Virus record (IMG/VR): IMGVR_UViG_3300013947_000022
Span: 128,001-192,000 of that record
Source: a virus
Taxonomy: Duplodnaviria; Caudoviricetes
Reading direction: 5' to 3' (one strand)
DNA: 64,000 nt
Of this stretch, positions 31,094-63,509 are shown in pieces. Each line of letters opens with the position of its first letter. Positions within the stretch are counted from its first letter, which is position 1. The position numbers were made by a program, and so were the translations under genes. The notes beneath the pieces are model-generated. The model was not told where the DNA came from and did no database searches. It saw only the letters and a list, made by a program, of their open reading frames with translations.

Positions 31094-31103
31094 GTTGTCT
31101 CCT

Positions 31104-31709: not shown

Positions 31710-31762
31710 AATGTTTACAACTCCTTAAAAATATTTTTGTTTAGAATTTTTTAAGATTTTGC

Positions 31763-31977
31763 TTGACAAATGGATTAAGATATACTATAATATCATCATG
31801 GAGAGAGGAATTGGTCTCCTCTCTCCTTTGTAACTCATTTTGTTAGTTACGGTGTTTGATGATGAACACTTGGATTACACTCGTAGTATAATCAACAGAT
31901 ATAACTTGCTACATTGAATCACCTCCTTTCACAATGAGTTTGAGGATAAAGACAGAGTTCAAAGCTCTGTCTTTTTT
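31763..31977 (+). ncRNA. cassette 1 antisense RNA (promoter to terminator)
   Basis: TTGACA-17-TATAAT, 5' hairpin, terminator gacagag/ctctgtc+T6. Confidence 0.6.
31843..31914 (-). CDS. amber-containing micro-peptide 1, M*QVISVDYTTSVIQVFIIKHRN (*=TAG)
   Basis: GAAAGGAGG SD; homologous to peptides 2 and 3. Confidence 0.75.
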
Positions 31978-31990
31978 CTTATATTATGCA

Positions 31991-32059
31991 TCACTTAAGA
32001 AATATCTTACCATTTTCAGTAGTAATGGTGTTCTTATAGAGGCAATTTAAGACTGACAT
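31991..32059 (-). pseudogene. duplicate remnant of the methyltransferase C-terminus
   Basis: LNCLYKNTITTENGKIFLK vs DCIRKNTITSKGGKNFLL. Confidence 0.55.
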
Positions 32060-32072
32060 AATTATATTCCTT

Positions 32073-32822
32073 TCAAATATTATATTTTTTAAATAATTCT
32101 TTTTGAGGAGCAAATTCTCCATAATATTCTTTTTCTGCTTTTAGTCGTTTTACAATAGCATCTTCTTTCTTTTTAAATCTTCCTAAATAGGTACGTTTTT
32201 TATTAATTCTTATTGAAACGACCCATTTCCCGTCTTTGGCTTGATATATTCCCGTTATTCCAGAAGTGTTGTTCTTTCTTATTTTTACGTTCATCCCATT
32301 TTCAGAGACGGAAGCAATACGAAGATTAATTTTGCGGTTGTCTAAAGAATTTTGATTTTCGTGGTCGTAAATTGTTTTGTTTTTCTTGTCTTTACCTTTC
32401 ATAATAAAATTGCTCATAGTATAATTAGTATTGTTAATACAAGTACGAAGATAAAGATAGCCATTTGTTCCTTTTTGAACCTCCCAGTAATAATTTTTAA
32501 TTTTATCAAAATCTTCTAAATCAAAAAAGAACTGATAACCTTTATCTGTCCAACCTATCCCGTATTCTTCAGTTGTTAAATCATATTTATTTTTCTTTCT
32601 TTCTTTTTCGGCATTTTTCTTCCCTAATTTTTTAATATTCTCTTTTCTCAAACAACCACAACTATTAATACCCCTACCTAAATTACCATTGCTTACAGAA
32701 ATTAATTCTGGATTACCGCAAGAACAAGAACATAACCAATAAGTTGCATTTTTTTCTTTGCTTCTTTTTTCGTCTTTTGCCTCAATGGTTAAACGTCCAT
32801 AAGTTTCTCCAATTTTCTTCAT
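32073..32822 (-). CDS. HNH-AP2 homing endonuclease
   Basis: CSCSCG, DH..DNRK.NLR, NNTSGITG AP2 domain. Confidence 0.85.
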   Translation of the reverse strand: MKKIGETYGRLTIEAKDEKRSKEKNATYWLCSCSCGNPELISVSNGNLGRGINSCGCLRKENIKKLGKKNAEKERKKNKYDLTTEEYGIGWTDKGYQFFFDLEDFDKIKNYYWEVQKGTNGYLYLRTCINNTNYTMSNFIMKGKDKKNKTIYDHENQNSLDNRKINLRIASVSENGMNVKIRKNNTSGITGIYQAKDGKWVVSIRINKKRTYLGRFKKKEDAIVKRLKAEKEYYGEFAPQKELFKKYNI

Positions 32823-33376
32823 AATAAAAAATTCTTTCCTCCTTTAGAGGTAATAGTATTTTTTCTGATGCAATCAGAATTTAATTTGTATTCATTTATT
32901 TTTTGATTTCTTTGATAACAATCCTTTTTTGTTGTTTTCCCAATTCCATCTCCTCTTCCTGCGTAAATACTAATATAATATAAAGATTGCTTTTTGTCAA
33001 GATTAATAAGAAAAGAAAAGTTTCTGATTTTGTTTTGTAACTCATTTAAAACAATATCATCATTAATGACATTCAACACATTGGAGCAGATAACAATATA
33101 GGGCTCACAAGTTAAAGCATCATGGTTTTCATTTTCATCTTTCCAGAATGGGTCATATCCTTTATAGATAAAACCCTTAGTAGCAAGGAAATGCTCAATG
33201 TGGTCAGTATAGCGACCACAACCAAAATCGAGAACAATGGGAGTGCGGTCAAACTTAGTAAGCTTATTCCAACGTTCACGAAGAGCGTCCCAATCCAAGC
33301 GATTATAGATAGCGGGAAGCTTCTTGGAATTGATGGAAGTGTTCTTAGAAGTGATGTCAGACTGAATAATGTACAT
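32819..33376 (-). CDS. class I SAM-dependent methyltransferase
   Basis: VLDFGCGR, YDP, CSNVLNVI. Confidence 0.8.
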   Translation of the reverse strand: MYIIQSDITSKNTSINSKKLPAIYNRLDWDALRERWNKLTKFDRTPIVLDFGCGRYTDHIEHFLATKGFIYKGYDPFWKDENENHDALTCEPYIVICSNVLNVINDDIVLNELQNKIRNFSFLINLDKKQSLYYISIYAGRGDGIGKTTKKDCYQRNQKINEYKLNSDCIRKNTITSKGGKNFLL

Positions 33377-33419
33377 TGTAGTACCTCCTTAAATAAATTG
33401 AATTGTTTGTTAATTTTTG

Positions 33420-33743
33420 TTAATTGGAACGAATCTGTGCTGCGATTTTGTCAATGACAAGACGATATTTATTTGTCATTTTAGGAGACTTATAATTTCG
33501 TCCGTGACGAAAGACATTGATGATATTATAAGTATCATCTGTAAGGCGCAACATATAAGGAGCATTAAATTGAATGAGAACAGAAACATAATCAAAATGT
33601 TCTGTAGGAGTATTAGCTCTCCATTCGATGATATACTTTCCTGTATCAACGACAGGGGCAAAAACTTTAAGTTCTCGCCCAAATTCGTCATGAAGGGTTT
33701 TAAGATAGAAATAATCTCCATAAATAACGTTGTATTTAGCCAT
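33420..33743 (-). CDS. hypothetical protein
   Basis: AAGGAGG SD. Confidence 0.6.
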   Translation of the reverse strand: MAKYNVIYGDYFYLKTLHDEFGRELKVFAPVVDTGKYIIEWRANTPTEHFDYVSVLIQFNAPYMLRLTDDTYNIINVFRHGRNYKSPKMTNKYRLVIDKIAAQIRSN

Positions 33744-33778
33744 GTTTGTAGCCTCCTTAAATTTGTTTTGGACGTTGT

Positions 33779-34054
33779 TTAGACGTCAATAGTAGCAGTT
33801 TCCTCAACGATAAGGAAATCACCAGCGAGGTGAATATCATAGGTTGTGTATGTCTTTCCAGCAAGAGGTTCAACGGGGATAGTATCACTAACATATCCCA
33901 ATTCAGAAAGGAATTCTTGCGCAGCCTGTTGAGTCGTCATGACATCGGTAATATCATACCATTCTTCAATATTATCCAATGTGTAGATATGAAGCTGAGT
34001 TTTGACTTCGCTGTTGTCCAGCCATGCGTAGCCCGTAGAGATATACTTTTTCAT
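33779..34054 (-). CDS. hypothetical protein
   Basis: AAGGAG SD. Confidence 0.65.
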   Translation of the reverse strand: MKKYISTGYAWLDNSEVKTQLHIYTLDNIEEWYDITDVMTTQQAAQEFLSELGYVSDTIPVEPLAGKTYTTYDIHLAGDFLIVEETATIDV

Positions 34055-34075
34055 TTTTTATTTTCTCCTTAAAAA

Positions 34076-34708
34076 TTAGAACAAAGTTTTGATTTGAAGG
34101 TTGCGACATCCACAAACAGCGCAACGATAACGTTGCGGATTTTGAATGAGCTTACAAGCTCTTGCTCTTGTAGCAACAATTTTGTTGCAGTCAGGACAGA
34201 TGATTTGGTATTTTATACCCCCAAGTTGAGCGGAAGCTTCCTTTGCAAACCATGCAGGAGCATCTTCTTCTCTAATGCATCGAGTTACTTTAAACTCTGT
34301 GAAATTGGAAACATAATTAGCCTTATATTTCCATTCGCCTGTATGTTTCATTCCGTCTTTAGTAGCATGAAGAACCTCATGAAGAATTACTTCATGCACT
34401 CCTTTGGGGAGAGCGACTTCAAAATACCGATGGGAGAATGTGAGTACATATTTATACTCATGGTCTCTATGACAAAGACCGATGGATTTGGGTCTGGGCT
34501 TTTCATTCCACTGAAGATAGAACTGGACTTTCTGCATTTGCTTTTCGTGTCCCCAGATATAATCCAACCAGACACAAATTTCATTCACCTCCTTTCTAAT
34601 ATCGTCAAGCGTGTAGTTTGCGGTGTCTTTACGAGAGAAAGACTGAGGGATAAGAGTACGAACAGTAGGCATAAAACTTTCCTCCATTAAAATATAAATA
34701 TTAGACAT
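34076..34708 (-). CDS. SprT-like zinc metalloprotease
   Basis: LHEVLH (HExxH), H..xWK, C-terminal CxxC..YRCxxC. Confidence 0.8.
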   Translation of the reverse strand: MSNIYILMEESFMPTVRTLIPQSFSRKDTANYTLDDIRKEVNEICVWLDYIWGHEKQMQKVQFYLQWNEKPRPKSIGLCHRDHEYKYVLTFSHRYFEVALPKGVHEVILHEVLHATKDGMKHTGEWKYKANYVSNFTEFKVTRCIREEDAPAWFAKEASAQLGGIKYQIICPDCNKIVATRARACKLIQNPQRYRCAVCGCRNLQIKTLF

Positions 34709-34713
34709 TGGTT

Positions 34714-35265
34714 TCAGTTATGGTCGCGAACATCTGCGAAGTGGTCAACAAGGCTTTTAGTTTTAAAATTCATTCTTTCGGTTTTTTCTTCAATTCGGTG
34801 TATAAGTTTGCTACGAAGATTTGTGTAAATGTTATATTCTTCCCAACGAGTGATAAAACCAGCTTTACTAATGCCAAATGCCTGTAAAGAGTTATTAGGA
34901 CTAAAAGTGGGATGAGCAATAGAAAGATTCTCGTTCCACCCACAACCCATAAAATACATACTTTCAGTATTTGCATTAATTGCAATGCTATATTGAATCG
35001 CTGTATCATCTGCGGAATAAAAAACGCGAATAGCGTCGATTTTAGCTTCTTGCATAACCCTAAGAAGAGGCTTAAGCTGTTCGCAAATAGCCATCCATTT
35101 GGCTTCTCCCATAGCTTCGATTTTAGGAGTGTAGAATTTGTCAGCGTTCATGAATTCATTCTTAGCTTCTGTTAGCTTATTCAAAGCCATAGTAAGCTCC
35201 ATATCCTCGTGAGTATCGTATTCGACAGTGACCTTGATGTTGTTGATAGTGTTCTTGATTTCCAT
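34714..35265 (-). CDS. hypothetical protein
   Basis: AAGGAG SD. Confidence 0.7.
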   Translation of the reverse strand: MEIKNTINNIKVTVEYDTHEDMELTMALNKLTEAKNEFMNADKFYTPKIEAMGEAKWMAICEQLKPLLRVMQEAKIDAIRVFYSADDTAIQYSIAINANTESMYFMGCGWNENLSIAHPTFSPNNSLQAFGISKAGFITRWEEYNIYTNLRSKLIHRIEEKTERMNFKTKSLVDHFADVRDHN

Positions 35266-35334
35266 GATAATTCTCCTTTAAATTAAAATTTGTTTTTGGA
35301 TGCTTAAATAAAGGGATAGTTATCTACCCCTTAT

Positions 35335-35751
35335 TCACTTAACTTCAATGTCGTAGAAATCTTCGTCGCAGTGGAAACATTGATAAGTGTATCCATCAAT
35401 CTGGGACGGATAAAGATTACGTCCACATTTGGGACATTTCTTTACAGGGTCACATTCCTCACCTCCATTTTCAAGAAACTCCATTTCATCGTTTGTGATG
35501 ATTTCATTCTCGTTCAAAGCGAAAAGGAGTCCGTCATAAGTTTCGCAGATTTCTTTCTGGAACTCAGGAACGGCTCCAATCTTGCGTTTAATCATTTTCA
35601 CCTCACTTCCATCGACAACAACACAAGGAGTTTCGTCTCCTAAGCTGTTGTTTTCGAGGAGACAATAAACCTTGTCATTGATACGTTTAAAATCAATGAT
35701 GCTCCAAAGACCAAAGTGACCAGAAGTTTTGTAAGTGTTGTCCTTAACCAT
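35335..35751 (-). CDS. hypothetical protein with C-terminal zinc ribbon
   Basis: CPKC..CFHC; AAGGAGG SD. Confidence 0.65.
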   Translation of the reverse strand: MVKDNTYKTSGHFGLWSIIDFKRINDKVYCLLENNSLGDETPCVVVDGSEVKMIKRKIGAVPEFQKEICETYDGLLFALNENEIITNDEMEFLENGGEECDPVKKCPKCGRNLYPSQIDGYTYQCFHCDEDFYDIEVK

Positions 35752-35786
35752 TTTAAAATCCTCCTTAAAATTATTGTTGTTTATGG

Positions 35787-36002
35787 TTAAATCTGAGAAT
35801 AAATATCCCAATTCACATTATAAAGGTAAGAACCCATCATAATGAGAAAAAGCTTACGTTGATTAGATTCTCCCCAAACACGTCTCATACCCGTGATATT
35901 GGGATGAGGACCTGCATTGGGAAAAGTTTCGATATGAGACTTAAGGGCTGGGGAAATGCTGGACTTCTTTGCGTACTTAACAGGATAGACTTTGTTTTTC
36001 AT
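35787..36002 (-). CDS. hypothetical protein
   Basis: AAGGAGG SD. Confidence 0.6.
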   Translation of the reverse strand: MKNKVYPVKYAKKSSISPALKSHIETFPNAGPHPNITGMRRVWGESNQRKLFLIMMGSYLYNVNWDIYSQI

Positions 36003-36016
36003 TTTGATAAACCTCC

Positions 36017-36661
36017 TTAAAGTTCTTTAAAATTTATGGGTAAAATTTCATATTCGTCAATTTTTTCTGGATGAAGTAAATCTTCACAGAAAAAACCATC
36101 ACTTGAGAGAATTTCACAAGCTTTAAGTTCATTCATTGAAAGGCAAGATTTGTTGAAAATGGGGTTGTTAGCGGTTAATCCAGCAATATAGCATAAAGCT
36201 AATTTTGGGAAGAATTCAAACTCGTGAACCTTAAATTTAACTCTTCCTTCTTCAACAAGCTGGTTAAATGTATCCGCCCACATACAGACAGCAGAATACA
36301 TATTGGGACAACTATCATCTGGGACGCAAATATCCTCCCAAGAATTAATAGGTTCATCGAAGCTGTCTGTATAGAACGTAATTTCAAGAACACAAGTCGT
36401 ATCAAATGGATGAGGTAGGCAAGCGTTCTGAATCTGAGCCTGTTCATTACAACGCTCAAGACAATATTGAATTGCTGTTTCGTTGTCATCATCATAGATG
36501 CATTCAGATTTTTTCATAAGAGTAGCATCATGGAAAAAGATAGACGTTCCATCTGATACTGTCCAAGGGTGAATAATATCGTGTAAGTCATTCCCATATT
36601 CACCATGAACGATAGGCTCAACAGAGGATTTAACGCAACCATGATAAAGAGTATAAGACAT
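36017..36661 (-). CDS. hypothetical protein
   Basis: AGGAGG SD, 214 aa. Confidence 0.7.
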   Translation of the reverse strand: MSYTLYHGCVKSSVEPIVHGEYGNDLHDIIHPWTVSDGTSIFFHDATLMKKSECIYDDDNETAIQYCLERCNEQAQIQNACLPHPFDTTCVLEITFYTDSFDEPINSWEDICVPDDSCPNMYSAVCMWADTFNQLVEEGRVKFKVHEFEFFPKLALCYIAGLTANNPIFNKSCLSMNELKACEILSSDGFFCEDLLHPEKIDEYEILPINFKEL

Positions 36662-36702
36662 AATACTAACCTCCTAAATTTTTATGTTTTCTGAAAAAAT
36701 AC

Positions 36703-37017
36703 TTGACAAAAAGGAAAGAGTATGATATACTATTCACAGTGAGAGGGAAAATCCACATTCCCAATACTATGACATGGAAAGGTAATGACAGACCACAGAG
36801 CGCGATATATCCGCAGCTTCAAATAGTATATCATACTCACTATCTCAACTGTTAATTACGGTGTTGATAGATTCCAATTGCGACTGCATTGAACTAATAG
36901 TCAACGCAGATGATTTTCTTCATTTTATCATCTCCCTTCTTAAAATGAAGTTATATGAAAAGGTGTGTGGACACCTTGTTTATGAGTTTGGAGCAAGTGT
37001 AGGCTTGCTCCTTTCTC
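36703..37017 (+). ncRNA. cassette 2 antisense RNA
   Basis: TTGACA-17-TATACT; loops TCCACA / TGTGGA; terminator ggagcaag/cttgctcc. Confidence 0.6.
36852..36923 (-). CDS. amber-containing micro-peptide 2, MKKIICVDY*FNAVAIGIYQHRN
   Basis: GAAGGGAG SD; family homology. Confidence 0.75.
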
Positions 37018-37489
37018 AATCTCTGGGGTCAGGTGCAACATCAATCCAAAGGCCATCTCCCGCATCAGGGTCATGATGAAGCTCAACATTTTCGACGAGC
37101 AAGGTGTCGGAAAGACTATCCCAATTCCAGAACCCCACCGTATCATAGGCGCAATCACAACCGACAATCCATTCTCCTTTAGATGTATCATAAATTGCAA
37201 TCTGCGTTTCCTTAGAAAGAGTGCGAACAAAATCTCCAATGGAAACATAATGGTCAGAATTGTCTGTCTTGTTATCCTTGCCATAAACATAATCAACAGC
37301 AGCCTGAAGATTATCCATGAAATAGTGACCTTGAGCCCAATACTTACGCTGATGGTCGATGCCCCATGCACCGATATATCGAGGAGTTCCATCATTAGTC
37401 CAGTTGCAAAGCAAGGTACGGTCAAGTTTCTTGTTTTCAGCGATAATCTGATAAGTGATGCCATTGTCATTTCTAAACTCTCTAACCAT
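37016..37489 (-). CDS. hypothetical protein
   Basis: GGAGG SD before ATG 37489. Confidence 0.7.
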   Translation of the reverse strand: MVREFRNDNGITYQIIAENKKLDRTLLCNWTNDGTPRYIGAWGIDHQRKYWAQGHYFMDNLQAAVDYVYGKDNKTDNSDHYVSIGDFVRTLSKETQIAIYDTSKGEWIVGCDCAYDTVGFWNWDSLSDTLLVENVELHHDPDAGDGLWIDVAPDPRD

Positions 37490-37524
37490 TTTAAATACCT
37501 CCAAATATTTTTTGTGAATTTTAC

Positions 37525-37788
37525 TTGACAAATGAAAAGAAATGTGTTATAATCAAATCACAATCTAAAAGAGACCTGCAACCTCAGATAGATTGTGACT
37601 TGTGCAAGAAATTAAATTGGTGGATTAATTCCTATGCTTAATAATAACGACCTAACAGGTGTTATAAGTATAATCAATATGTTTGATTTTACTCATGTAG
37701 AATCACTTCCTTTCTCTCTTAAAGAGGGAATTAAGCTTTGCAGGAGCTTAAACTAAAAGACAGGTAGTTTGTGGGCTACCTGTCTTTT
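37525..37788 (+). ncRNA. cassette 3 antisense RNA
   Basis: TTGACA-17-TATAAT; loops CCTGCAA / TTGCAGG; terminator. Confidence 0.65.
37625..37696 (-). CDS. amber-containing micro-peptide 3, MSKIKHIDYTYNTC*VVIIKHRN
   Basis: GAAAGGAAG SD; TAG aligns with CAA (Gln) of peptide 1. Confidence 0.75.
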
Positions 37789-37795
37789 GCTTTAG

Positions 37796-38668
37796 TTAGT
37801 CCTCAATTCCATATTGAGAAAAGAGATGTTTTTGGGGAGCAAATTCCCCAAAAAGTTCCTTTTCTTTTTGAAGTCGGTCTTTTACAGCATCTTCAAAAGA
37901 ACGCCAAGTTTTTCTGTAAATATATCCATTACAAGCTATTCTGGTACGCCAAGTTAAAGTGCCTGATGGTTTTATTTCTTTGTATACTCCAATAACGCCA
38001 CTTGTATTATTTTTAGCTAAAGACATATTGTAACGATTTTCAGCAGAAGATGCTTCTCTTAAATTATTTTTTCTACAATTGGTTACATCTCTATCTTTGT
38101 GGTCTACAATCTTCCATTTAAAATCTGTTACTAAATGATGAAAAGCAATATTTTCTTGGTCAGCAGACCTAAGATAATTCCCATGTTCAGTAACTCGCCA
38201 TGTATGAGTACAAACTTTTTCATAATCTTCTTTATCAAAATAATATTTTGTGTCGCTATTAATTGGAATAACTGCCATTGTTATATCATCTATTATCTCA
38301 TATTTATTTCCCCTTCTATGATTTTGATGAATACCACAAGTAACAATCAATCCGCTTTTTAAATGAGTGGCTCTTACGCTTGTTTGAACACCGCAAGAAC
38401 ATTGGCAAATCCAATAAACTCTTGTTTTTGTTTTGTCTTGTCTTAAAACAGTTAATTCGCCAAAAGTTTTGCCTGTTAAATCTTCAAATCTGCGAGTAGA
38501 ACAACCACAAGATTTTATATGGCCATTTTTAAGTTCACATCCTCTAACTATTTGCGTGTTACCGCATTGGCATTCGCATTCCCATAATTCAGGAACAGTA
38601 GATGATTGTTTTATAACAGTTAATTTACCATAAACATCTCCAATTTTTATTTCTTTATTATTGTCCAC
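37796..38668 (-). CDS. HNH-AP2 homing endonuclease
   Basis: two CxCxCG repeats, VDHKDR..NLR, NNTSGVIG. Confidence 0.85.
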   Translation of the reverse strand: MDNNKEIKIGDVYGKLTVIKQSSTVPELWECECQCGNTQIVRGCELKNGHIKSCGCSTRRFEDLTGKTFGELTVLRQDKTKTRVYWICQCSCGVQTSVRATHLKSGLIVTCGIHQNHRRGNKYEIIDDITMAVIPINSDTKYYFDKEDYEKVCTHTWRVTEHGNYLRSADQENIAFHHLVTDFKWKIVDHKDRDVTNCRKNNLREASSAENRYNMSLAKNNTSGVIGVYKEIKPSGTLTWRTRIACNGYIYRKTWRSFEDAVKDRLQKEKELFGEFAPQKHLFSQYGIED

Positions 38669-38670
38669 TG

Positions 38671-39153
38671 TTAATCTCCTTGTTTATCAATAAATGAAAT
38701 ATTTGCCAAATTGACAGTAATAGTATCGGGTTTTTCTGATAGCTTGTTAAAATAGGAATTTTGCACATATCCAGTAGAAGCTAAAACATCTTTTTTAATT
38801 GGATTACCATTGAGATAATACTTTACTTTTGAATGATTAGGGGTAGAATGCAAAACCACATAAAATTTTGTTTGCCCCTCTTTGTCTGTATGAGTAAGGA
38901 TTCTATCTGACCCGTCTAAATATTCCCCCCATTTTCTTGCTTGGGGAACATATCCTTGTGCCATTTTGTTTTTAACTGCTTTTGTATTAAGGCGATTAAT
39001 TCCCACTCTAAAAGTTCCATAAGTTTTCTTTGTGACAATGATTCCCTCTTTTTTAGCCTTAGCCGTAAGAGGCACATCAGAAACATATCCCATATTAAAG
39101 AAACGTCCCTTGGCAATACGGTTTAACTTGATAATAGCTTCGTTCTTGTTCAT
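38671..39153 (-). CDS. hypothetical phage protein
   Basis: AAGGAG SD. Confidence 0.7.
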   Translation of the reverse strand: MNKNEAIIKLNRIAKGRFFNMGYVSDVPLTAKAKKEGIIVTKKTYGTFRVGINRLNTKAVKNKMAQGYVPQARKWGEYLDGSDRILTHTDKEGQTKFYVVLHSTPNHSKVKYYLNGNPIKKDVLASTGYVQNSYFNKLSEKPDTITVNLANISFIDKQGD

Positions 39154-39206
39154 GATAATTCTCCTTTAAATTAAAATAGACTTTTTATTTGATAAGTAGG
39201 TGAGGC

Positions 39207-40211
39207 TTACGCCGCCTCGCCCACAATATCATACACGCGATTGAGAAGAGGCATACCATTGATAACAGCGGTAAAGCCCATAGGAGTCTTTGCAGTGCGA
39301 AGCGCGACAGGATGGCTTTCAAAGTCCGCTACGGCTTGCAAAGCACGAATTCCACTATTAGTAAAGTTGTCAAGGTCATTAGCCTTATAGCACTTCATCA
39401 GATAATCAATCTGACAAAGGTTACGAATCTGGATAATGTCCTTATCCTCAGCATGAACAGGGAACAGTTCCTTCGCCATCTCAAAGAACTGATTTTCACT
39501 GAAATTAATCTTTGCATATTCCTCACATTCCTTCTTGAATTCCTCAAGATACTGCTTCTGTCCCATAAGAGTGAGACGTGCCGCCTCAAGCTTATGATTC
39601 ATAGAAGAACTGTGACGAATAGTGATTTCGTTCACCATTCCCTTGCGAGCACGAGCAAGACAGTTGGAACAGAAAATGCGAATGCTGACATAGGAAATGG
39701 AGATTGCCCTACTTCCATCATGGGAGTTTTGGAGCAGGAGATAAGGCTTATAATCATCGCCAAGAATATTCATTCCATCCGTACTCATGGTAATGATGTT
39801 CTTAGCTCCATTGGTTCCATAACTTCCTGCGGTTTCAAAGTGAGCACCTTCTTCCACGAGAGAGTCGAGGAAGTCAAAGGCATCCTCGTTATTCAGAATC
39901 TCATAGTTGGGAGAAACAATGCCAAGGGACTGCATGGTATCAGTACGAACCGTTGCAACCTTATCCTTGATTGCATAAGGAGTCTGAATCATAATTTGCT
40001 TATCTCCCATCATCTGAACAACAGGCTGAGTAAACTGCAAGGGGAACTTCTCAACCTTGTAATTGAGTCCAGAAAGTTCGAGAGCCTGAGCAAGATTGCC
40101 AGCAGAGGTGATGTCCTTACCTACACCATCAGTGAAAACAGTACGCTGAACATTATCAAAACGAGAGGCGATAGGAGCAACTTTCTCACTATTGAACTGA
40201 AGAATACCCAT
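39207..40211 (-). CDS. DUF932 / TIGR03299 phage-plasmid protein
   Basis: LGIVS..Y..L.N..AF.F, FETAG, NSHDGS, RIFCSN motifs. Confidence 0.8.
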   Translation of the reverse strand: MGILQFNSEKVAPIASRFDNVQRTVFTDGVGKDITSAGNLAQALELSGLNYKVEKFPLQFTQPVVQMMGDKQIMIQTPYAIKDKVATVRTDTMQSLGIVSPNYEILNNEDAFDFLDSLVEEGAHFETAGSYGTNGAKNIITMSTDGMNILGDDYKPYLLLQNSHDGSRAISISYVSIRIFCSNCLARARKGMVNEITIRHSSSMNHKLEAARLTLMGQKQYLEEFKKECEEYAKINFSENQFFEMAKELFPVHAEDKDIIQIRNLCQIDYLMKCYKANDLDNFTNSGIRALQAVADFESHPVALRTAKTPMGFTAVINGMPLLNRVYDIVGEAA

Positions 40212-40262
40212 AATATTTCCTTTCTGCGTTTAAGCTCGCCAGCTTTTTGTTTTTGTTGAGAT

Positions 40263-40292
40263 AATTATATCACAGAATCTTGGATTTGTCAA
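40263..40292 (-). promoter_or_regulatory. sigma-A promoter for the DUF932 gene
   Basis: TTGACA-17-TATAAT with TG on - strand. Confidence 0.7.
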
Positions 40293-40576
40293 GGACTTTA
40301 GATAAAATAATCTAAAACCTTTTTTAAAGAATAAGAGGAGATATACTCCCCTTTATCTTTTAGGCAGAATATTTCCAAAGAAGCGCAAAGAGTTCATCAA
40401 CGAGCTTTCGAGCCTTAGCCTTGTCTTCATTTGGCATAGAAGTATCAGACTTTAAATCTCTCTTGAGAATATTAAGAGCATCAAGGTAACTGAGTTCGGT
40501 AATGTCGAGATTATCAATTTTCATGGTTTATTTCTCCTTTTAATAAAATAATTTGTGACTTATGGTAAGGGTGGAA

Positions 40577-41107
40577 TTACCACCCATATACCTTCTTAAT
40601 ATACGGAGCAAGGGAACGAGTATATCTCGTAATGTCTTGCTTCGTAGCTGTGCCATTATGCACTTTCCATAGGAAATTATCCGCTTGGTCAGAGCTGATA
40701 GTAGGCTTAAGTTCTCTAAACGTGCCGAAAATACTTCCATCATGATGCGTCTGGTCGCATCTAAAATCGTACCTATCCACATAGAAGTCAGCGTATTCAC
40801 AATCCTTGAAGAACTTAAGACATTCTCCAATATTGTGACCGTAGAGCTTGTAGCCCCTTCTCCGACCATTCCAAAGTCCGATGTCTGCAAGACAGACAAT
40901 TCGACCTTCTGTGTTGATATTGAGATTCACACGCTCATCATCGAGATAATCGAAATTGAGTTCGTACATTTCTTCCGTGAGAGTGTTGTCATCAACATCG
41001 ACAGGGAGGTTATTAAGCTCCCTGTTTTCAAGCAATCCCTCCTTCCAATCCTTAAGATTGAGTTCGTAGTTCTGCCAAATGTGACGAATAGGTTCTCTGC
41101 TTTTCAT
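40577..41107 (-). CDS. hypothetical phage protein
   Basis: GGAGG SD; GLWNGR and HHDG motifs. Confidence 0.7.
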   Translation of the reverse strand: MKSREPIRHIWQNYELNLKDWKEGLLENRELNNLPVDVDDNTLTEEMYELNFDYLDDERVNLNINTEGRIVCLADIGLWNGRRRGYKLYGHNIGECLKFFKDCEYADFYVDRYDFRCDQTHHDGSIFGTFRELKPTISSDQADNFLWKVHNGTATKQDITRYTRSLAPYIKKVYGW

Positions 41108-41185
41108 TGTTCATACCTCCAAAATTTTATTTGAGTTTATTTTAAATCATCTAAGATGATTTGTCAATAGGTTTTTAAGCTTATT

Positions 41186-41380
41186 TTAATGGACATTGCA
41201 GAAGAAATCTTCTTCTACAAAGGTTACACCATCATAGTGTTCAAAGATGATTTCATCAGGAATCTCTTCGGGGGTACTAAATGTACCCTCGTTAATATCC
41301 TGAGTTTCATCTTGGTAAAAGAAATTGGACTTGAGCTCATTAAGCTCATCGCGAGTTAAATCCTGAACCATTTTAATCAT
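41186..41380 (-). CDS. small acidic hypothetical protein
   Basis: AAGGAGG SD. Confidence 0.65.
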   Translation of the reverse strand: MIKMVQDLTRDELNELKSNFFYQDETQDINEGTFSTPEEIPDEIIFEHYDGVTFVEEDFFCNVH

Positions 41381-41685
41381 TATTTATTCCTCCTTAACAT
41401 TCAGTCTTCTCAATGGTCATATCAAAATGTTCCTGACCGCGCTCTTCAGCTTCATCAATCTTTTCGTTGATATACTGAAAAAATTCTTCACGGGATTCGC
41501 AGAAGATGGCAGTACTGTCTTCTTCACCGAGACAAAAAGATAAAATTTTGTTTTTAGTCATAATAATTTCCTTTCTTTTTTTAAAAAAGTTCTTGACAAG
41601 TGGTTATTGATGTGTTACAATACCTACAGAGTCAAGAGACCCGTAACCTCTCAACTCTGTAGGATATTAATTTTGATTTCTTCTC

Positions 41686-41766
41686 TTATAGCTCAAGGAA
41701 ACCAGTAAGCACTATTACATAGTAATAAATGCCAAATTTGTAATCAACAAACTTAGTTTTCTACAT
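41686..41766 (-). CDS. amber-containing micro-peptide 4, M*KTKFVDYKFGIYYYVIVLTGFLEL
   Basis: GAAAGGAG SD; family homology. Confidence 0.8.
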
Positions 41767-41908
41767 GGCTTTCATCTCCTTTCCTCCTTAGACAAGGGTT
41801 TCATTTATATGAACAGCTTACGGGGCTGGAGTTTTTATGGTGGAGAGATGAAACTTGAAGCCCGTACTTCCTTGCTTCATCTCTCGTGACGCATTCTAAT
41901 TTCTTAGA

Positions 41909-41989
41909 TTACAGCTCTAAGAAACCAGTTAGTACTATTACAAAGTAATAGATATTATGCGTATAATCAAGCTATCTTAGCTTACGCAT
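41909..41989 (-). CDS. amber-containing micro-peptide 5, MRKLR*LDYTHNIYYFVIVLTGFLEL
   Basis: GAAAGGAG SD; synonymous changes relative to peptide 4. Confidence 0.8.
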
Positions 41990-42319
41990 CAACAACCACT
42001 CCTTTCTGATTGTTGTATCTATGTGAACAGTTACGGGACTGAGTTTCACAAAGATTAGGAACAGGTTTAGCCCTGTTCCTTTCTTTTTCTCCTTTTTTAA
42101 TACATATAATACTCATCGTCATGATGAATATAACGTTCAGTCAAATCCTTCAAAGGTTGACTGATTTTCTTGGGCTTCTCTTTAAGGCGTGAATCTTTAA
42201 AGGCTCGATTTGTATAGTATCGGAATTTTCCATGTCCCTTTACCATCTTATTGTGACGCTGGGCTTGAAAAACTTCATGTTCATTCATTCCCATTTGTTT
42301 CACCTCCTTTAGTTTGTTA

Positions 42320-42643
42320 TTAATAATGATATCTGCCCCTTTGGGGATTTTCTTCCTTCCTTTTGCAATCAAACACCTTACTAATGTTGTAAGCCCAGAT
42401 AGAATCACCGAGACTTGTATCAATACAAGGTTGAACACGAATCGGGAAATGGATTGAAGCACAATAATCTTCAATCCGCTTAAGTTGGAATTTGCGAAAA
42501 ACGGTGATTGTATCACCTTTGAGCAGAGCTTTAATATCTGCCTGCTCAAGAGTATCAATCAAAAGATTGAGCTTGCTGTTGCTATCAATGTTATTGATAG
42601 CCTCGTTCATATAGCGTGTAGTCATGTTTGTCATAGCAGACAT
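42320..42643 (-). CDS. hypothetical protein
   Basis: GGAGG SD. Confidence 0.65.
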   Translation of the reverse strand: MSAMTNMTTRYMNEAINNIDSNSKLNLLIDTLEQADIKALLKGDTITVFRKFQLKRIEDYCASIHFPIRVQPCIDTSLGDSIWAYNISKVFDCKRKEENPQRGRYHY

Positions 42644-42874
42644 TTTACTTAGCCTCCTTTTTAATTTTACCCATAACTTTCATTTCGTCCTCATCAAATT
42701 GGGAACAGATTTTCAACTCTTTTTGATACCAGAGCTGTTGGCATTTCTTACATTGGACAATGTCATTCTGCATTACCACAAACTTGTGGGAAATGCAATG
42801 TGGATTGGGGCAAAAAGCTGTGAATTTCATTTCCGATTTCTCCTTATTATTCTCAAGTTTTTTGTAAATTCTTC

Positions 42875-43126
42875 TTGACAAGCTAAATAAACTATGTTAT
42901 AATCTTCAACGGTTAAAGAGATGAGCGAATGAAACTCAGAGCTCTTTAACTGAGATTGGGTTAAGTTGTGGCGAACTTGTTAGACCTCAATCTTACCACC
43001 GAGGATATGTGACACCACGGTGACATTGAAGAAATAGTTTATTGACTAAATCTTACGCATTTGGAAGTCCTCCTTTCTTATGTGATAAGAACAATCAGAC
43101 AAGCACAAATGAGTGCTTGTCTTTTT
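42875..43126 (+). ncRNA. cassette 6 antisense RNA
   Basis: TTGACA-17-TATAAT, 5' hairpin, terminator agacaagcac/gtgcttgtct+T. Confidence 0.6.
42980..43060 (-). CDS. amber-containing micro-peptide 6, MRKI*SINYFFNVTVVSHILGGKIEV
   Basis: GAAAGGAGG SD; family homology. Confidence 0.75.
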
Positions 43127-43343
43127 GTTTAGAAATAATACTTAAAGTAACAGTCAACAGGTTTGACTGTCACTTTAGCCGAAGAATCCAAACCCATCTT
43201 GGTTGTTTTAATAACATAACCAAATCTGGCGTAAGCATCTTTTATGCTTCTTGCTACTACGTCGCCTTCATATAGCTTGGATTGACCTCCAAGCTGTGCA
43301 ATGTAGGCTTTAACATGGTATTTAGATTTGCGCTGAATAGGCA

Positions 43344-43529
43344 TTATTCCACCTCCTTTTCTTTGTAATGAGCGCATTGGTCAACCTTGAAGTAAACTCC
43401 ATGATTGTACCAATATTCTACTCTTTTTGTATTGAACTGTTTATGGTAAAGGCAAATCTCTTTGTTTCCACAAGTAACGCAGAGATTAGTGTTCTTCTTA
43501 AGATACTCCTGCTTTTCTTTGAGCGTCAT
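43344..43529 (-). CDS. small Cys-rich protein
   Basis: AAGGAG SD. Confidence 0.55.
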   Translation of the reverse strand: MTLKEKQEYLKKNTNLCVTCGNKEICLYHKQFNTKRVEYWYNHGVYFKVDQCAHYKEKEVE

Positions 43530-43574
43530 TTTCTTTCTCTCCTTTTCATTTTTATTTTTATTGTTAAATTTCTC

Positions 43575-43878
43575 TTGACAAATATTAAGAGTTATGCTAT
43601 AATTCTCTCAAAGAGTAAAGAAATCCCGTATTCTTTCAATACTCTTTGAGGCTATTAGTTTGTAGGGACAGTTTACTTTATATTTCATTTATCAGACTTC
43701 CATGAAGCCAGTCAAAACTACGACGTAATAGTAAACATTGAATTTGTAATCAAGCTACTTCATTTTTCGCATATATTATTTCACTCCTTTCTTTTCTCAA
43801 GACGGAGAGGTTGTCCTGCGATACGGGAAGGACTATGTGAAAAAGATTGAGCAACGGGCAGGTTGCTCTTTCTTTTTT
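43575..43878 (+). ncRNA. cassette 7 antisense RNA
   Basis: TTGACA-17-TATAAT; loops CCCGTAT / ATACGGG; terminator. Confidence 0.65.
43692..43772 (-). CDS. amber-containing micro-peptide 7, MRKMK*LDYKFNVYYYVVVLTGFMEV
   Basis: GAAAGGAG SD; family homology. Confidence 0.8.
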
Positions 43879-43888
43879 GATTTTTACT

Positions 43889-44215
43889 TTATTCCGTGGT
43901 AATGACCCATTCTTCTCCATTCCCATCAATAATATGAACCACTTCGTTATTGATAGTAACAGATTCTAAATTGCAGAGCCAAGACTCTACAATCTCAGTG
44001 TGGTTTGTCATTGAAGCTTCTTCAGCTTCATGTAAGCCGTCCTCAAAACCTACGTTATAAGAGCCAGTTAAATCTTCCTCAGAGTAGAGAGTGGTGTCCT
44101 TGATGGCATAGGACTTTTCGCCCATGTCCCATCCAAGATAGAACATGAAGATACTGCAAAGGGTTGTAACCAAAGCAACGATAAGACCGATATTTTCCTT
44201 GACCTGATTTTTCAT
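43889..44215 (-). CDS. membrane-anchored hypothetical protein
   Basis: N-terminal TM segment. Confidence 0.65.
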   Translation of the reverse strand: MKNQVKENIGLIVALVTTLCSIFMFYLGWDMGEKSYAIKDTTLYSEEDLTGSYNVGFEDGLHEAEEASMTNHTEIVESWLCNLESVTINNEVVHIIDGNGEEWVITTE

Positions 44216-44248
44216 TTTTCATAACCTCCGAATATTTGTAAATAATAC

Positions 44249-44549
44249 TTGACAAACGCTAAATGTTATGGTATAATTCTCTCAAGAAGTGAGGAATCCC
44301 GTATTATTCTCTCACTCCTTGAGGCTATTGGTTTGTAGGAATTGGCTTCAATGAATTAGAGCTCCATGAAGCCACAGCTTACTATTGTAAAATAGTAAAC
44401 ATTGAATTTGTAGTCAAGCTACTTTAGATTCTTCATTGAATCACCTTCCTTTCTTCCTCTAACTGAGGGATTGTCGCACTATACGGGAGCGACTTTTTTA
44501 GAATGGAAAAGATTGAACGACTCGTTGCGGGAGTCGTTCTTTCTTTTTT
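44249..44549 (+). ncRNA. cassette 8 antisense RNA
   Basis: TTGACA-17-TATAAT; loops CCCGTAT / ATACGGG; terminator. Confidence 0.65.
44356..44436 (-). CDS. amber-containing micro-peptide 8, MKNLK*LDYKFNVYYFTIVSCGFMEL
   Basis: GAAAGGAAGG SD; family homology. Confidence 0.8.
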
Positions 44550-45423
44550 ATTTGCCTTCAATGACTTTCTCAACAAAGAGCCCCATACAACCTTCGGGAT
44601 GCTTTGTGGAAACATCTTTGAATTCCTTTCGCTGTGCGTCGATAAAATCAGTTGAAGTGTCATATTGCTCAAGAGCTTTAACAAGCTTAATTGTTTTAAG
44701 CATATCGTTTCCATAACGCTTATAAGCCTGATACCCAATGTTGAGACTGGCTTCCACGAAAGCTTTACTATCGTGGTCAGCCCAGCCACTCAAATCAATG
44801 AGCGCGAGTGCATAATTAACGCCTTCATCTCCGAACTCATCGTGAATCTGAAGAAGCTTTCTGGGAGCGGTGATATTACGAAGACTGCCCTTCTTACCTC
44901 CAACTGTGACATTGTATTTGTCACAAATTTTCAGAATAGAAACAGCAGGCTCAAGATTTAATTTTCGAGCACAGTTAAACATATCTGCGGGGGAAACTCT
45001 GGTTACGCCATCATTCTGGTGCATGAATAAATAAGCTTCTTCTTCAACGGTTAATCCATCAAAGAGCCTGCACCAAGCCCATTTATATCCTTTTGCATTA
45101 AGAGATTCAATGGTATGATGCCCATCCCAGCATTCAAGATACCCATCACGGAAATTGAGAGATTTAACTTCACTCCGCTTATAGTCAAAATTGCGGAGAA
45201 TGGACAAATAAGAATGCTTAAGGTCTCTCTGTCCTTCAAAAAGATTGATAAGATTGAGAGGAACTTTTACCATCGTCCAAGGACGGGAAGGATTCTCACG
45301 AATCTCTTTGAGCGCGGGAATCAGAACCGTCTTAGCCCATGTGGAGTTCATATCCACCTTGATACGTTCAACGCCGAGAGTGTTCTTGCTGTTGATGCTG
45401 TTCATGTTGACCTTCTTCTTCAT
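44548..45423 (-). CDS. ParB/Srx-like N-terminal domain protein (DUF6551-like)
   Basis: QR..., WDGHHT, EEAYLF..QN motifs. Confidence 0.6.
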   Translation of the reverse strand: MKKKVNMNSINSKNTLGVERIKVDMNSTWAKTVLIPALKEIRENPSRPWTMVKVPLNLINLFEGQRDLKHSYLSILRNFDYKRSEVKSLNFRDGYLECWDGHHTIESLNAKGYKWAWCRLFDGLTVEEEAYLFMHQNDGVTRVSPADMFNCARKLNLEPAVSILKICDKYNVTVGGKKGSLRNITAPRKLLQIHDEFGDEGVNYALALIDLSGWADHDSKAFVEASLNIGYQAYKRYGNDMLKTIKLVKALEQYDTSTDFIDAQRKEFKDVSTKHPEGCMGLFVEKVIEGK

Positions 45424-45487
45424 AATCCTGTGTCCTTTCTGGTGTTATAGACTTTTCCTTGTCTAAATAAAATATTTAGAGTACAAA

Positions 45488-45542
45488 TAAGCACTCTATG
45501 GAGGGACAGAACTATCAAGCTCTGTCCCTCTAACAATGCTTA
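45488..45542 (-). repeat. conserved stem/internal-loop motif, copy 1
   Basis: + strand TAAGCACTCTAT-[hairpin]-TAACAATGCTTA. Confidence 0.75.
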
Positions 45543-45743
45543 TTAGAACCGCATCACTTCGGTGCGGTAAATCTTGCCAGTCTTAGACTGATTATAGCGC
45601 TTAACTGCGCCATAGTTAATGGACTGAGCAATTTCTTTGGGCTTACTCTCTTCATTGTAATGACAAGTCTTACAAGACTTGCCATTACAAATCCCCATCT
45701 CAACCAGAGATTTGCATTTCTTGGTCATAATATTAGAATCCAT
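45543..45743 (-). CDS. small Cys-rich protein
   Basis: AAGGAG SD. Confidence 0.6.
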   Translation of the reverse strand: MDSNIMTKKCKSLVEMGICNGKSCKTCHYNEESKPKEIAQSINYGAVKRYNQSKTGKIYRTEVMRF

Positions 45744-45804
45744 ACTGTTCTCCTTTCGGCTTATAGCCTTATAAAATTGTTTACAGGAACTTTATATAAA
45801 ACAC

Positions 45805-46012
45805 TTGACAAATATAGCCAAGTGTGTTATAATCAGAGACAGTTAAGAAAGATGCTGTCACATCAATCTTAACTGCTCTTGTGGATTTATATCAGATTAT
45901 TACCAGATAACCTCCGATAATAATACCGAATGCCACTATGTTGTACTAACGTACAACGTCGATAGTAATGCGCATATTACTACCTCCTTTCTGAGTGCTG
46001 ATTTGACTTGCT
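45805..46012 (+). ncRNA. cassette 9 antisense RNA (3' end uncertain)
   Basis: TTGACA-17-TATAAT, 5' hairpin with loop CTGTCA. Confidence 0.5.
45892..45975 (-). CDS. amber-containing micro-peptide 9, MRITIDVVR*YNIVAFGIIIGGYLVII
   Basis: GAAAGGAGG SD; same architecture. Confidence 0.7.
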
Positions 46013-46068
46013 TAAGCACTCTATAGAACGTCAGAAGTTATCTCCTTCTGACGCTCTAACAACGCTCA
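46013..46068 (-). repeat. conserved stem/internal-loop motif, copy 2
   Basis: + strand TAAGCACTCTAT-[hairpin]-TAACAACGCT. Confidence 0.75.
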
Positions 46069-46125
46069 ATCGAGCAATATCAAAGAGATATGTTTGACCA
46101 GTTCATACCTCTTTGACATGGATGA

Positions 46126-46281
46126 TTAGTCTAAGTCTAACTTAGTTACATCAATCTGGAAGAATTCAATTAGCGAATCAACACTCATGTGTTGCGTATA
46201 CCAATTAAATTCAAACTCAGAAGTGATATTCTATAATAGAATAGCATCAATCTTCATTTTGTTCATAAGACTGTCTTCCAT
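46126..46281 (-). CDS. 51-aa hypothetical protein with TAG=Gln at codon 17
   Basis: GAAAGGAGG SD; single in-frame TAG. Confidence 0.55.
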
Positions 46282-46371
46282 GAATTCCTCCTTTCTTGTA
46301 ACAAGCTAAGTGGGGTTAGCTGTTATTAATATCCTAATTGGTCACTTTAGGATGGAGTCTTAGCTACGAAC

Positions 46372-46426
46372 TAAGCACTCTATTAAGCCCACCATCAATT
46401 ATGATGATGGGCTTTAACAATGCTTA
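46372..46426 (-). repeat. conserved stem/internal-loop motif, copy 3
   Basis: + strand TAAGCACTCTAT-[hairpin]-TAACAATGCTTA. Confidence 0.75.
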
Positions 46427-47008
46427 CACGCAATGCAATGTATTATAATAATAATACATTGTACGGTCAAATTCTCTTATAACGGTTTTTAACTCGTTTG
46501 AGTCCTTTAGAAGAGCAATTAACTTACCCTTCACTCTGTCAAGGCGATACATATCATTGCTCTTAACAGCGTAGTAACCATCTACGTGGATGAGTTTGTT
46601 GACCTTGTTACGCATCTCCGTATTCACTTTTTTTAATTCCTTTCGCTCCTTTCTCAAGGGAGACTTTAAAATTTATTATTGCCGAGACTTGTGGAATAGG
46701 ACTCATTTGTTTATACTCGTTGAATCCTTTAGAGACGAGTTGAAGAGTTAGATGTGGCGAATGTACCACATAAAGCTCTTCTTGCCTCCTGTGAGGCGAT
46801 AGATAAGGTACATTGCCATTACAGCAACGATACCAAGAGAAAAGATGATACTGAAAACGATAGAGATAAACATGAGAGCGAACATTTTACTGTTCTCCTT
46901 TCTGGTGTGAAGATTCTGTGTTGGTTTCCCATCATCAGTGCCGTAGTAACCAGCTACGACAGACAGAGAGAGATTTTACCCTCTCTCCCTGTTTCGGGAT
47001 TTAGTATA

Positions 47009-47230
47009 TCAGAACTTGATATACTCCACGAACAGCTCGGTTGCGAGTGAAGAATAAATGTTGCTGTCAAGGACAACAACCTTATCTTCACCCCAGTACA
47101 GAGCGAGAATCTTATTGGTACGCTTGATAGCGTAACCCTTGTTGTCCTCGACAATGCCGAGGTCAATCTTGGCGTTGGTAGCGTTGGTGTCCTCGATGGC
47201 ATTGAGGATGTTCTTTTCAAGTTTGGTCAT
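47009..47230 (-). CDS. hypothetical protein
   Basis: GAAAGGA SD before ATG 47230. Confidence 0.6.
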   Translation of the reverse strand: MTKLEKNILNAIEDTNATNAKIDLGIVEDNKGYAIKRTNKILALYWGEDKVVVLDSNIYSSLATELFVEYIKF

Positions 47231-47299
47231 GACTGATTTCCTTTCTGGTTTTAACGTCTTGTAACCTGACGATGATAAGAAATATTTATTATAAAACAC

Positions 47300-47525
47300 T
47301 TGACAAATAACCTATCAAGTGATATAATACAAACATAGAGAAGAAACCTATATTTCTTCTCTATGAGGAGATTCAAGGATTTTAGAGAATCCAAGAACCA
47401 TCAAGAATAATGCTATAGCTGATTACACCATTATTCTTATCTATAGATTTTACAATCTACATTGTAAATCCTCCCTTCTTCGAGGATAAAAGTCAATATG
47501 AATTATAGGCTTCATAATGACTATT
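47300..47525 (+). ncRNA. cassette 10 antisense RNA (may extend through downstream hairpins)
   Basis: TTGACA-17-TATAAT; loops CCTATA / TATAGG. Confidence 0.6.
47382..47462 (-). CDS. amber-containing micro-peptide 10, M*IVKSIDKNNGVISYSIILDGSWIL
   Basis: GAAGGGAGG SD; same architecture. Confidence 0.7.
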
Positions 47526-47889
47526 GAGGAATTTCTGTTTCTCTCGTTTTGCCTGAGAAACAGAAATTCATTCTCCTTTATTCCGAATTAGCTGGAAATT
47601 TAATTCGGAATAAAGGAATATATGAAGCAAAAGAGATGAATGATTTGTTTTTGAGCTTGTCATTCATTTCTTTGACTTTGCTGAAGATAGAAACAAGTGA
47701 AATTACATTACCGTAATTCGCTTTTTTGTATTTCTACTACATATGACATGAAAGTAAAGGGAGAAATAAAAATTTTTAAAAAATTTTTTAAAAACAAAAA
47801 AATAAAAAAGACAGAGCCTTCTAATCGAAGCTCTGTCTAAATTTATATCTAAAACTTTATCCTTTGTCTCTTATCCTTTAATCTTTTAC

Positions 47890-62215: not shown

Positions 62216-62236
62216 TTGAAAGGATGGTGTTGCTTG

Positions 62237-63088: not shown

Positions 63089-63164
63089 TTAAATAATAAA
63101 GCAATAAAATAAGAGGGTTTCAATTAACCCTCTTTTCATATATAGGCGAAGGAGGTTAGAAGAT

Positions 63165-63461: not shown

Positions 63462-63509
63462 AATATAAATAGAATTCAAATGTTTAAAAGGTTTAAAAGG
63501 TGGTGACTT

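Follow-up and report, generated by a model that had tools for sequence, protein, structure and literature searches.

The window analysed here is a stretch of 64,000 nucleotides (nt), bases 128001–192000 of one 215,374-bp virus record, and the element under study is a family of ten very short open reading frames (micro-ORFs) on its minus strand, each with an in-frame TAG codon. The micro-ORFs start with ATG after a Shine–Dalgarno (SD) sequence of the GAAAGGAGG type, end with TAA or TGA and contain 23–27 sense codons. The SD is of the GGAGG type and lies 6–10 nt ahead of the ATG in all ten, so that each of them is, as in toxin–antitoxin (TA) systems of type I, a small ORF of fewer than 60 amino acids (aa) with its own ribosome-binding site. 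Micro-ORFs 1 (31843–31914; MqQVISVDYTTSVIQVFIIKHRN, with TAG written as q), 2 (36852–36923) and 3 (37625–37696) encode 23 aa; micro-ORFs 4 (41686–41766), 5 (41909–41989), 6 (42980–43060), 7 (43692–43772), 8 (44356–44436) and 10 (47382–47462) encode 26 aa, and micro-ORF 9 (45892–45975) encodes 27 aa. Micro-ORFs 4 and 5 lie in tandem and have an antisense promoter in common. One TAG was found in each of the ten, at codons 2, 10, 15, 5, 6, 5, 6, 6, 10 and 2 of micro-ORFs 1–10, respectively. The value for micro-ORF 4 is counted from an in-frame upstream ATG at 41775; judged by its distance from the SD, the second ATG (41766) is the better start, and counted from there the TAG is codon 2, the position given in the preliminary description. 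A hidden Markov model (HMM) of the family, run over the 215-kb genome, returned exactly these ten copies with one TAG each. Direct reading and the HMM therefore bear out the preliminary description of this DNA, which had reported exactly one TAG in every micro-ORF at varying positions.

The genes around the micro-ORFs avoid this codon. The 36 flanking minus-strand genes (5808 codons) contain two TAGs, both in doubtful small ORFs, versus 179 CAA/CAG codons, which essentially agrees with the earlier statement that the neighbouring genes lack TAG. The binomial check of TAG per Gln codon that had been proposed was performed. Of the 13 Gln codons that the micro-ORFs contain, ten are TAG; the background share is 9.7% over the whole genome (p = 1.6e-8) and 19% over the TAG-containing genes (p = 1e-5). 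The chance of all ten having at least one TAG at the rate of TAG-containing genes is about 2e-8; because the copies are paralogues, these figures overstate their independence.

Relatives were collected using the neighbouring DUF932 gene as a query, which gave five related contigs of ~108–219 kb, and using two DNA patterns that leave TAG unspecified. The resulting set consists of about 20 related ~200-kb phage contigs with 101 occurrences of the family and 63 unique peptides. The unique peptides contain one TAG in 46 cases, two in 14 and none in three, so that TAG is retained in 60 of 63; the rule of exactly one TAG applies to the ten copies of this genome and fails across the family. TAG occupies six aligned positions, namely codons 2 (42 times), 5, 6 (13 times), 10, 12 and 15 (12 times), and accounts for 74 of the 88 Gln codons of the family (84%). 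A preference for TAG over CAA/CAG, as expected of a gate that depends on genetic code 15, is thus seen both here and in the family. Paralogues have CAA or CAG where TAG aligns at positions 2, 6, 12 and 15, and the TAG at codon 15 of micro-ORF 3 is kept in the orthologues of three related contigs (L001, L002 and L003). At codons 2 and 6, one orthologue group has TAG/CAA, CAR/TAG or TAG/TAG (MqKIKQ, MQKIKq and MqKIKq, respectively), and the same exchange recurs in a second lineage (MqIVKS versus MQLVKq). No copy with CAR at both codons was found in the orthologue sets that differ there. The three TAG-less peptides all belong to a single lineage (MKKIIS...KNYNF), in which codon 2 encodes Lys where sister copies have TAG (L005:2822–2896; L016, minus strand, 1934–2009 of the reverse complement; L031, likewise, 3222–3297). 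This lineage still retains the SD and the antisense promoter and represents a natural 'unlocked' control. Frequent loss of TAG among homologues, which the preliminary description had named as the outcome that would speak against it, was looked for, and this one orthologous lineage was all that was seen. Because TAG is kept while its position wanders, in a block that otherwise avoids it, the comparison supports the stop codon itself, and not Gln at a fixed site, as the probable object of selection, as had been proposed. The number of independent TAG events is modest because all of the genomes compared are close relatives.

A pattern scan of genome contigs gave 14 matches, and an HMM screen left family members only in a phage-like 28-kb contig (G007:C181, L065), which carries nine copies and is binned in a metagenome-assembled genome labelled Bacteroidaceae. 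This contig is evidently part of the genome of a related phage. Its bin label may not indicate the host, because the strong SDs and the TTGACA/TATAAT promoters look more Firmicute-like. No family member turned up when the L060 and L066 genomes were searched in full, and the family HMM gave no convincing standard-code homologue in 400 Clostridia genomes. Eight weak partial matches among the latter (E values of 5e-4 to 1e-2) were rejected as noise; the six that were inspected had no SD–ATG or convincing antisense promoter.

The substitution pattern is that of coding sequence. Pairwise variability at codon positions 1, 2 and 3 is 0.42, 0.26 and 0.54 in subfamily A and 0.45, 0.34 and 0.58 in subfamily B, and the ratios of nonsynonymous to synonymous substitution (dN/dS, NG86) are 0.29 and 0.49 in frame versus 0.79–1.13 when the frame is shifted either way. 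In the C-terminal motif HRN, the conserved Arg is encoded by CGT, CGC, AGA or AGG. Conservation is strong at the C terminus ([KYHQ][HN]RN-stop and GF[LM]E[LV]-stop), in-frame stops other than TAG are always avoided, and the SD and ATG are present in every copy here and in all but one contig-edge copy in the relatives. Purifying selection is found on both sides of the TAG, and therefore the ORFs must be read through it; on this signature the micro-ORFs are real peptide-coding genes, predicted to be translated through TAG. A Pfam search with eight of the peptides at E ≤ 10 gave nothing meaningful.

Each micro-ORF faces a strong promoter on the opposite strand, and the micro-ORF with its flanking signals is called a cassette below. 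Nine plus-strand promoters match TTGACA-17-TATAAT at 11–12 of 12 positions, and each points into a micro-ORF from its 3′ side, one per cassette except for the promoter common to cassettes 4 and 5. The match is 12/12 for cassettes 1 (31763–31791), 3 (37525–37553), 6 (42875–42903), 7 (43575–43603), 8 (44249–44277), 9 (45805–45833) and 10 (47300–47328), and 11/12 for cassettes 2 (36703–36731) and 4+5 (41593–41621); the −10 element is TG-extended in eight, that is in all but cassette 1. For six antisense units an intrinsic terminator was predicted on the plus strand just past the SD of the micro-ORF: 1 (31948–31974), 3 (37754–37789), 4+5 (42057–42080), 6 (43097–43122), 7 (43849–43868) and 8 (44515–44539). 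The hairpin of unit 4+5 was scored on both strands, with the better T-tract on the plus strand. The predicted antisense RNAs are 190–270 nt in length (465 nt for the tandem pair) and have stable folds. Promoters and terminators bracket both the ORF and the SD, which is the cis-antisense arrangement of type I TA systems, here at the level of sequence. An Rfam search of 31000–48500 at E ≤ 1 gave four sub-threshold unrelated matches and no known antisense or toxin RNA family. A weak match to Hammerhead_II lies between cassettes 9 and 10 (46920–46999, minus strand; 30.3 bits versus a gathering score of 37, E = 0.011). The motif TTCAYATA, which was spotted by eye near several cassettes as a candidate minus-strand promoter, is not enriched (15 occurrences versus 10.3 expected) and was rejected.

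A further conserved feature lies in the hairpins that flank the ORF. The loop analysis covered 71 unique cassettes with full flanks, of which 59 have a CCYRYA motif 25–80 nt upstream of the ATG together with a TRYRGG motif 10–95 nt downstream of the stop. The two motifs are exact complements in 59 of 59 cassettes, in six variants (CCCGTA, CCCACA, CCTGCA, CCTATA, CCTACA and CCTGTA; permutation p = 5e-5). Both are in apical loops, and the stems beneath them are highly variable in sequence. Stems of at least 4 bp are present in 97% and 93% of cases, versus 26% and 48% after shuffling. The downstream hairpin is better in the mRNA sense than in the antisense (mean stem 10.7 versus 6.7 bp, 63 versus 20 G–U pairs; Wilcoxon p = 2e-6), and therefore the structure is selected on the micro-ORF transcript. 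As judged from this covariation, the intramolecular match cannot be explained by antisense complementarity alone; it points to a predicted long-range 5′–3′ interaction that would close the mRNA, as in hok and aapA1. In cassette 7 the upstream loop (43822–43827, minus strand; CCCGUA in the mRNA sense) pairs with the downstream loop (43625–43630, minus strand; UACGGG), and the same DNA of the latter forms the 5′ hairpin of the antisense RNA. The corresponding pairs are at 44482/44298 in cassette 8, 42032/41861 in cassette 5, 41819/41640 in cassette 4, 37739/37575 in cassette 3 (CCUGCA), 47504/47347 in cassette 10 (CCUAUA) and 36966/36752 in cassette 2 (UCCACA).

The genome as a whole shows signs of a recoded TAG. 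Reading through TAG raises the long-ORF coverage in parts of the genome (for example from 0.54 to 0.79 at 20–30 kb), and in a genome ORF scan the longest ORF increases from 1169 to 2707 aa. A rough gene call of the whole genome gave 284 genes, 96 of which contain TAG, with a total of 202 TAGs in 61,310 codons. Near-consensus σ70 promoters number 53 genome-wide. Because almost all of these precede TAG-free genes, the TAG-free early blocks would form a standard-code early class that is transcribed by the host RNA polymerase, with the TAG-containing genes as a separate class. Gut phages that use code 15 are known to have such TAG-free early genes next to TAG-containing ones (Borges et al., bioRxiv 10.1101/2021.08.26.457843). 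Outside the window, at genome positions 111751–112043 (L007:8252–8544), lies a split tRNA gene whose break falls inside the anticodon, between CU and A. The 219-nt insert scores 34.8 bits against the Rfam group I intron model RF00028, which is under the gathering threshold (local E = 2.6e-7); once joined without it, the tRNA halves fold into a tRNA(CUA). ARAGORN found no tRNA(CUA) in the unmodified sequence; it appears only once the insert is removed. The gene is thus a candidate phage-encoded suppressor tRNA, and decoding of TAG as Gln would fit the alignment of TAG with CAA/CAG.

Single TAGs near the start also occur in longer genes. Among single-TAG genes of at least 150 codons the TAG falls within the first 10% of the gene in ten of 24 (p = 5e-5; the start calls are rough). 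Examples are nrdD (genome 80788–83856), with TAG at codon 10 inside an N-terminal ATP-cone-like sequence that is readable through TAG, genome positions 58082–59047 (TAG at codon 13), 62036–63937 (codon 27) and 65178–67229 (codon 13), and window positions 55492–57240 (codon 52). This distribution suggests a possible genome-wide 'amber gate' class between the TAG-free and the multi-TAG genes, and TAG-gated micro-ORFs fit such a wider habit of N-terminal single TAGs.

The cassette region is mosaic among the relatives, with 75–90% nucleotide identity. Cassette 7, which lies inside an operon in this phage, is an indel unit as a whole (~43550–43899: terminator, hairpins, micro-ORF and antisense promoter). 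It is a clean 350-nt insertion that L001 and L003 do not have; a 15-nt SD spacer separates the same two flanking genes there (empty sites at L001:2230–2236 and L003:3953–4013). Its presence or absence thus differs between close relatives, and an A-rich TAAAAAT-like sequence is found at both of its edges. Since the flanking genes are adjacent in sister phages that lack cassette 7, the downstream gene does not need the cassette.

The cassettes lie in a minus-strand TAG-free block (28900–54650) that encodes DUF932, a SprT-like metallopeptidase, LPD18, GP88, a DUF6551 ParB-like protein and a methyltransferase-like protein; the set is reminiscent of the genes that phages and conjugative elements carry in their early or anti-defence regions. 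Pfam and PHROGs searches of the neighbouring and downstream genes gave only DUF932, SprT-like, LPD18, GP88, DUF6551, HNH/AP2 and unknown families. Three paralogous minus-strand genes (30353–31093, 32073–32822 and 37796–38668) have common repeat blocks and weak HNH/AP2 matches; they look homing-endonuclease-like and are dispersed across the early block.

The reading that we favour, with slightly more confidence than doubt, joins the ORF family, its coding signature and retained TAG, the promoters and terminators, the covarying loops, the presence or absence of cassette 7 and the split gene of the suppressor tRNA in one type I TA-like system that would be locked twice, by an antisense RNA and by an amber codon. 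The ten loci would be autonomous cassettes of ~200–350 nt, each with the gene of a translated 23–27-aa micro-protein under two independent locks. The first lock would be a cis-antisense RNA of ~190–270 nt, made from a σ70/σA consensus promoter and covering the whole ORF and its SD up to the intrinsic terminator. The second would be the one in-frame TAG, usually near the start, at which a standard-code host would stop after 1–14 codons; it would be released by the phage tRNA(CUA), which after splicing of the group I intron would read TAG as Gln. The mRNA would be closed further by kissing of the 5′ and 3′ hairpin loops that flank the ORF, with a loop sequence specific to each cassette. On this reading the peptides would probably stay locked until the phage switches its genetic code. 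We infer that both RNAs are transcribed, that the peptide is withheld until the switch and that its early expression would be harmful, in a toxin-like or host-directed manner. More speculatively, and with more doubt than confidence, the cassettes may be a mobile family of phage micro-effectors whose release needs two late signals together, loss of the antisense RNA made by the host RNA polymerase and arrival of the spliced suppressor tRNA, with the kissing loops preventing cross-talk among the ten paralogues.

Several observations weigh against the two-lock reading. The promoter scan found no minus-strand σ70 promoter immediately ahead of any micro-ORF. A classical type I toxin is transcribed from a promoter of its own, and none of the σ70-like kind lies here between the upstream terminator and the SD. 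Because of this, the micro-ORF mRNA probably arises by readthrough of the upstream hairpins, whose minus-strand T-tracts are poor, or is made by a phage RNA polymerase. The peptides also lack the hydrophobic membrane helix of type I toxins. They are rich in Ile, Val, Tyr and Asn, more like β-strand formers, with uncharged runs mostly of 4–12 residues and of 16 at most; because such runs are too short for a typical toxin helix, toxicity is a guess. Cassettes 6 and 9 are without the CCYRYA/TRYRGG loop pair, as is cassette 1, in which an 8-bp helix (31933/31832) brackets the SD and ORF in its place. The TAG-free lineage persists in at least three genomes. Finally, the copies are related within and between genomes, and the p-values of the family comparisons overstate their independence to that extent.

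The preliminary description, in which the convergent antisense unit plays no part, had instead taken the ORFs as attenuator-like sensors of amber suppression. Spelled out, this idea makes the cassette a cis-acting sensor of the code switch, in which translation past the TAG remodels the mRNA and changes the expression or stability of the downstream operon, and the peptide is irrelevant. Every cassette does lie directly upstream of a small minus-strand operon, an early TAG would make ribosome travel differ by ~10–25 codons with and without suppression, and conserved C-terminal residues are also found in some ribosome-arrest peptides. The purifying selection along the whole peptide is at odds with such a role. 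On the minus strand a U-tract is missing after the downstream hairpin, and minimum-free-energy folds from the micro-ORF to the next gene gave no consistent attenuator-like pairing or sequestration of the SD of that gene; neither terminator and antiterminator nor SD-sequestering alternatives were thus recognized. The linkage to the downstream gene is not obligatory, as seen for cassette 7, the downstream operons are TAG-free and outside the suppressor-dependent class, and micro-ORFs 4 and 5 occur in tandem. The attenuator-like interpretation is not supported by these results, and we consider such a sensor improbable. The cassettes could also be mainly transcription insulators, in which a strong convergent promoter and a terminator break up or silence minus-strand early transcription by interference and the micro-ORF is ancillary (for example in ribosome loading that protects or exposes the RNA), with TAG tuning it. 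The strongest host-type promoters of the block all face against the genes, the T-tracts of the terminators are better on the plus than on the minus strand and every antisense promoter is inside the 5′ untranslated region of the next gene. Such a function leaves the amino-acid conservation, the retention of a TAG of drifting position and the mRNA-sense loop covariation unexplained, and we give it a low probability.

The TAG itself could be a by-product without a gating role, owing to the initiation context at codon 2 or to a single TAG-bearing ancestor combined with late-gene codon usage under code 15. TAG is at codon 2 in 42 of 74 cases, the copies are paralogous and one lineage lives without it. 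The share of TAG among Gln codons in the family (84%, versus 19% in TAG-containing genes) is not what such an origin would give, and neither are the six positions, the retention of at least one TAG in the orthologue sets varying at codons 2 and 6 or the embedding of the cassettes in an otherwise TAG-free block; we regard this account as quite unlikely. That the ORFs are not translated at all, and the repeats are purely structured sense/antisense RNA elements with an incidental open frame, is the explanation to which we attach the least credence. It would suit the strong conserved RNA structure, the loop covariation and the interruption of the ORFs under the standard code, and it conflicts with the frame-specific dN/dS, the use of both Arg codon families, the correctly spaced SD and ATG and the consistent avoidance of non-TAG stops.

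The idea of recoded stops as a translation gate is already published (Borges et al., bioRxiv 10.1101/2021.08.26.457843), where they were proposed for late and lysis genes, to block premature expression of the lysis genes and likewise of a homing endonuclease inside an early gene. As in those phages, the genome has TAG-free early genes and other genes whose TAGs would need a phage suppressor tRNA; the cassettes are TAG-bearing genes within a standard-code block. The gate differs here in that it would act on ORFs of 23–27 codons, with a predicted antisense RNA opposite each of the roughly ten copies. The cassette family was not found in that work or in the wider literature searched.

Among type I TA systems, hok/Sok has a tac/fbi fold-back in the toxin mRNA. 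For aapA1/IsoA1 of Helicobacter pylori, a 5′–3′ lock, kissing loops and cognate specificity among paralogues have been described (Arnion et al., 2017, PMC5416894). With both of these the cassettes have in common, as predicted from sequence, a small ORF facing a strong cis-antisense promoter, a long-range 5′–3′ contact in the mRNA and multiple paralogues per genome; with aapA1/IsoA1 they also share a loop-specific recognition for each paralogue, here predicted from covariation. Unlike in these systems, there is no dedicated toxin promoter and no clear single membrane helix, the antisense RNA would span the entire ORF, the 5′–3′ contact is made between two loops and leaves out the SD, an in-frame amber codon would serve as a second lock and the carrier is a lytic-type jumbo phage. 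Type I TA modules also occur on Firmicute prophages, such as bsrG/SR4 of Bacillus subtilis. Another is CD0977.1–RCd11 of the Clostridioides difficile prophage phiCD630 (PMC7699646). The cassettes resemble such modules in their low-GC, Gram-positive-type phage background, convergent sense and antisense units, strong SD and bidirectional terminators. The prophage toxins, in contrast, are membrane-helix peptides of 34–60 aa in the standard code with a demonstrated stabilizing role, and no sequence similarity to them was found here. The trp, erm and tna leaders are leader-peptide attenuators. The micro-ORFs are like them in being very short, in an intergenic leader position and predicted to depend for translation on a particular decoding factor; they differ in that there is no terminator/antiterminator pair, the peptide is conserved and the cassette is dispensable for the downstream gene.

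The combination of an antisense RNA, an amber codon and a loop–loop mRNA lock would be a new architecture among type I TA-like systems, and the ~350-nt module is compact and testable for the code switch as a gate of gene expression. If it proves orthogonal in practice, the loop code could serve in the design of RNA devices. Recoded stops as phage timers have so far been inferred mainly from the classes of genes that carry TAG. The micro-ORF family adds evidence of a different kind, a TAG that is kept although its position drifts, in a block that avoids it. If the micro-effector interpretation is true, these would be the first natural genes wired directly to a genetic-code switch, for example in the timing of host shut-off, lysis or competitor exclusion.

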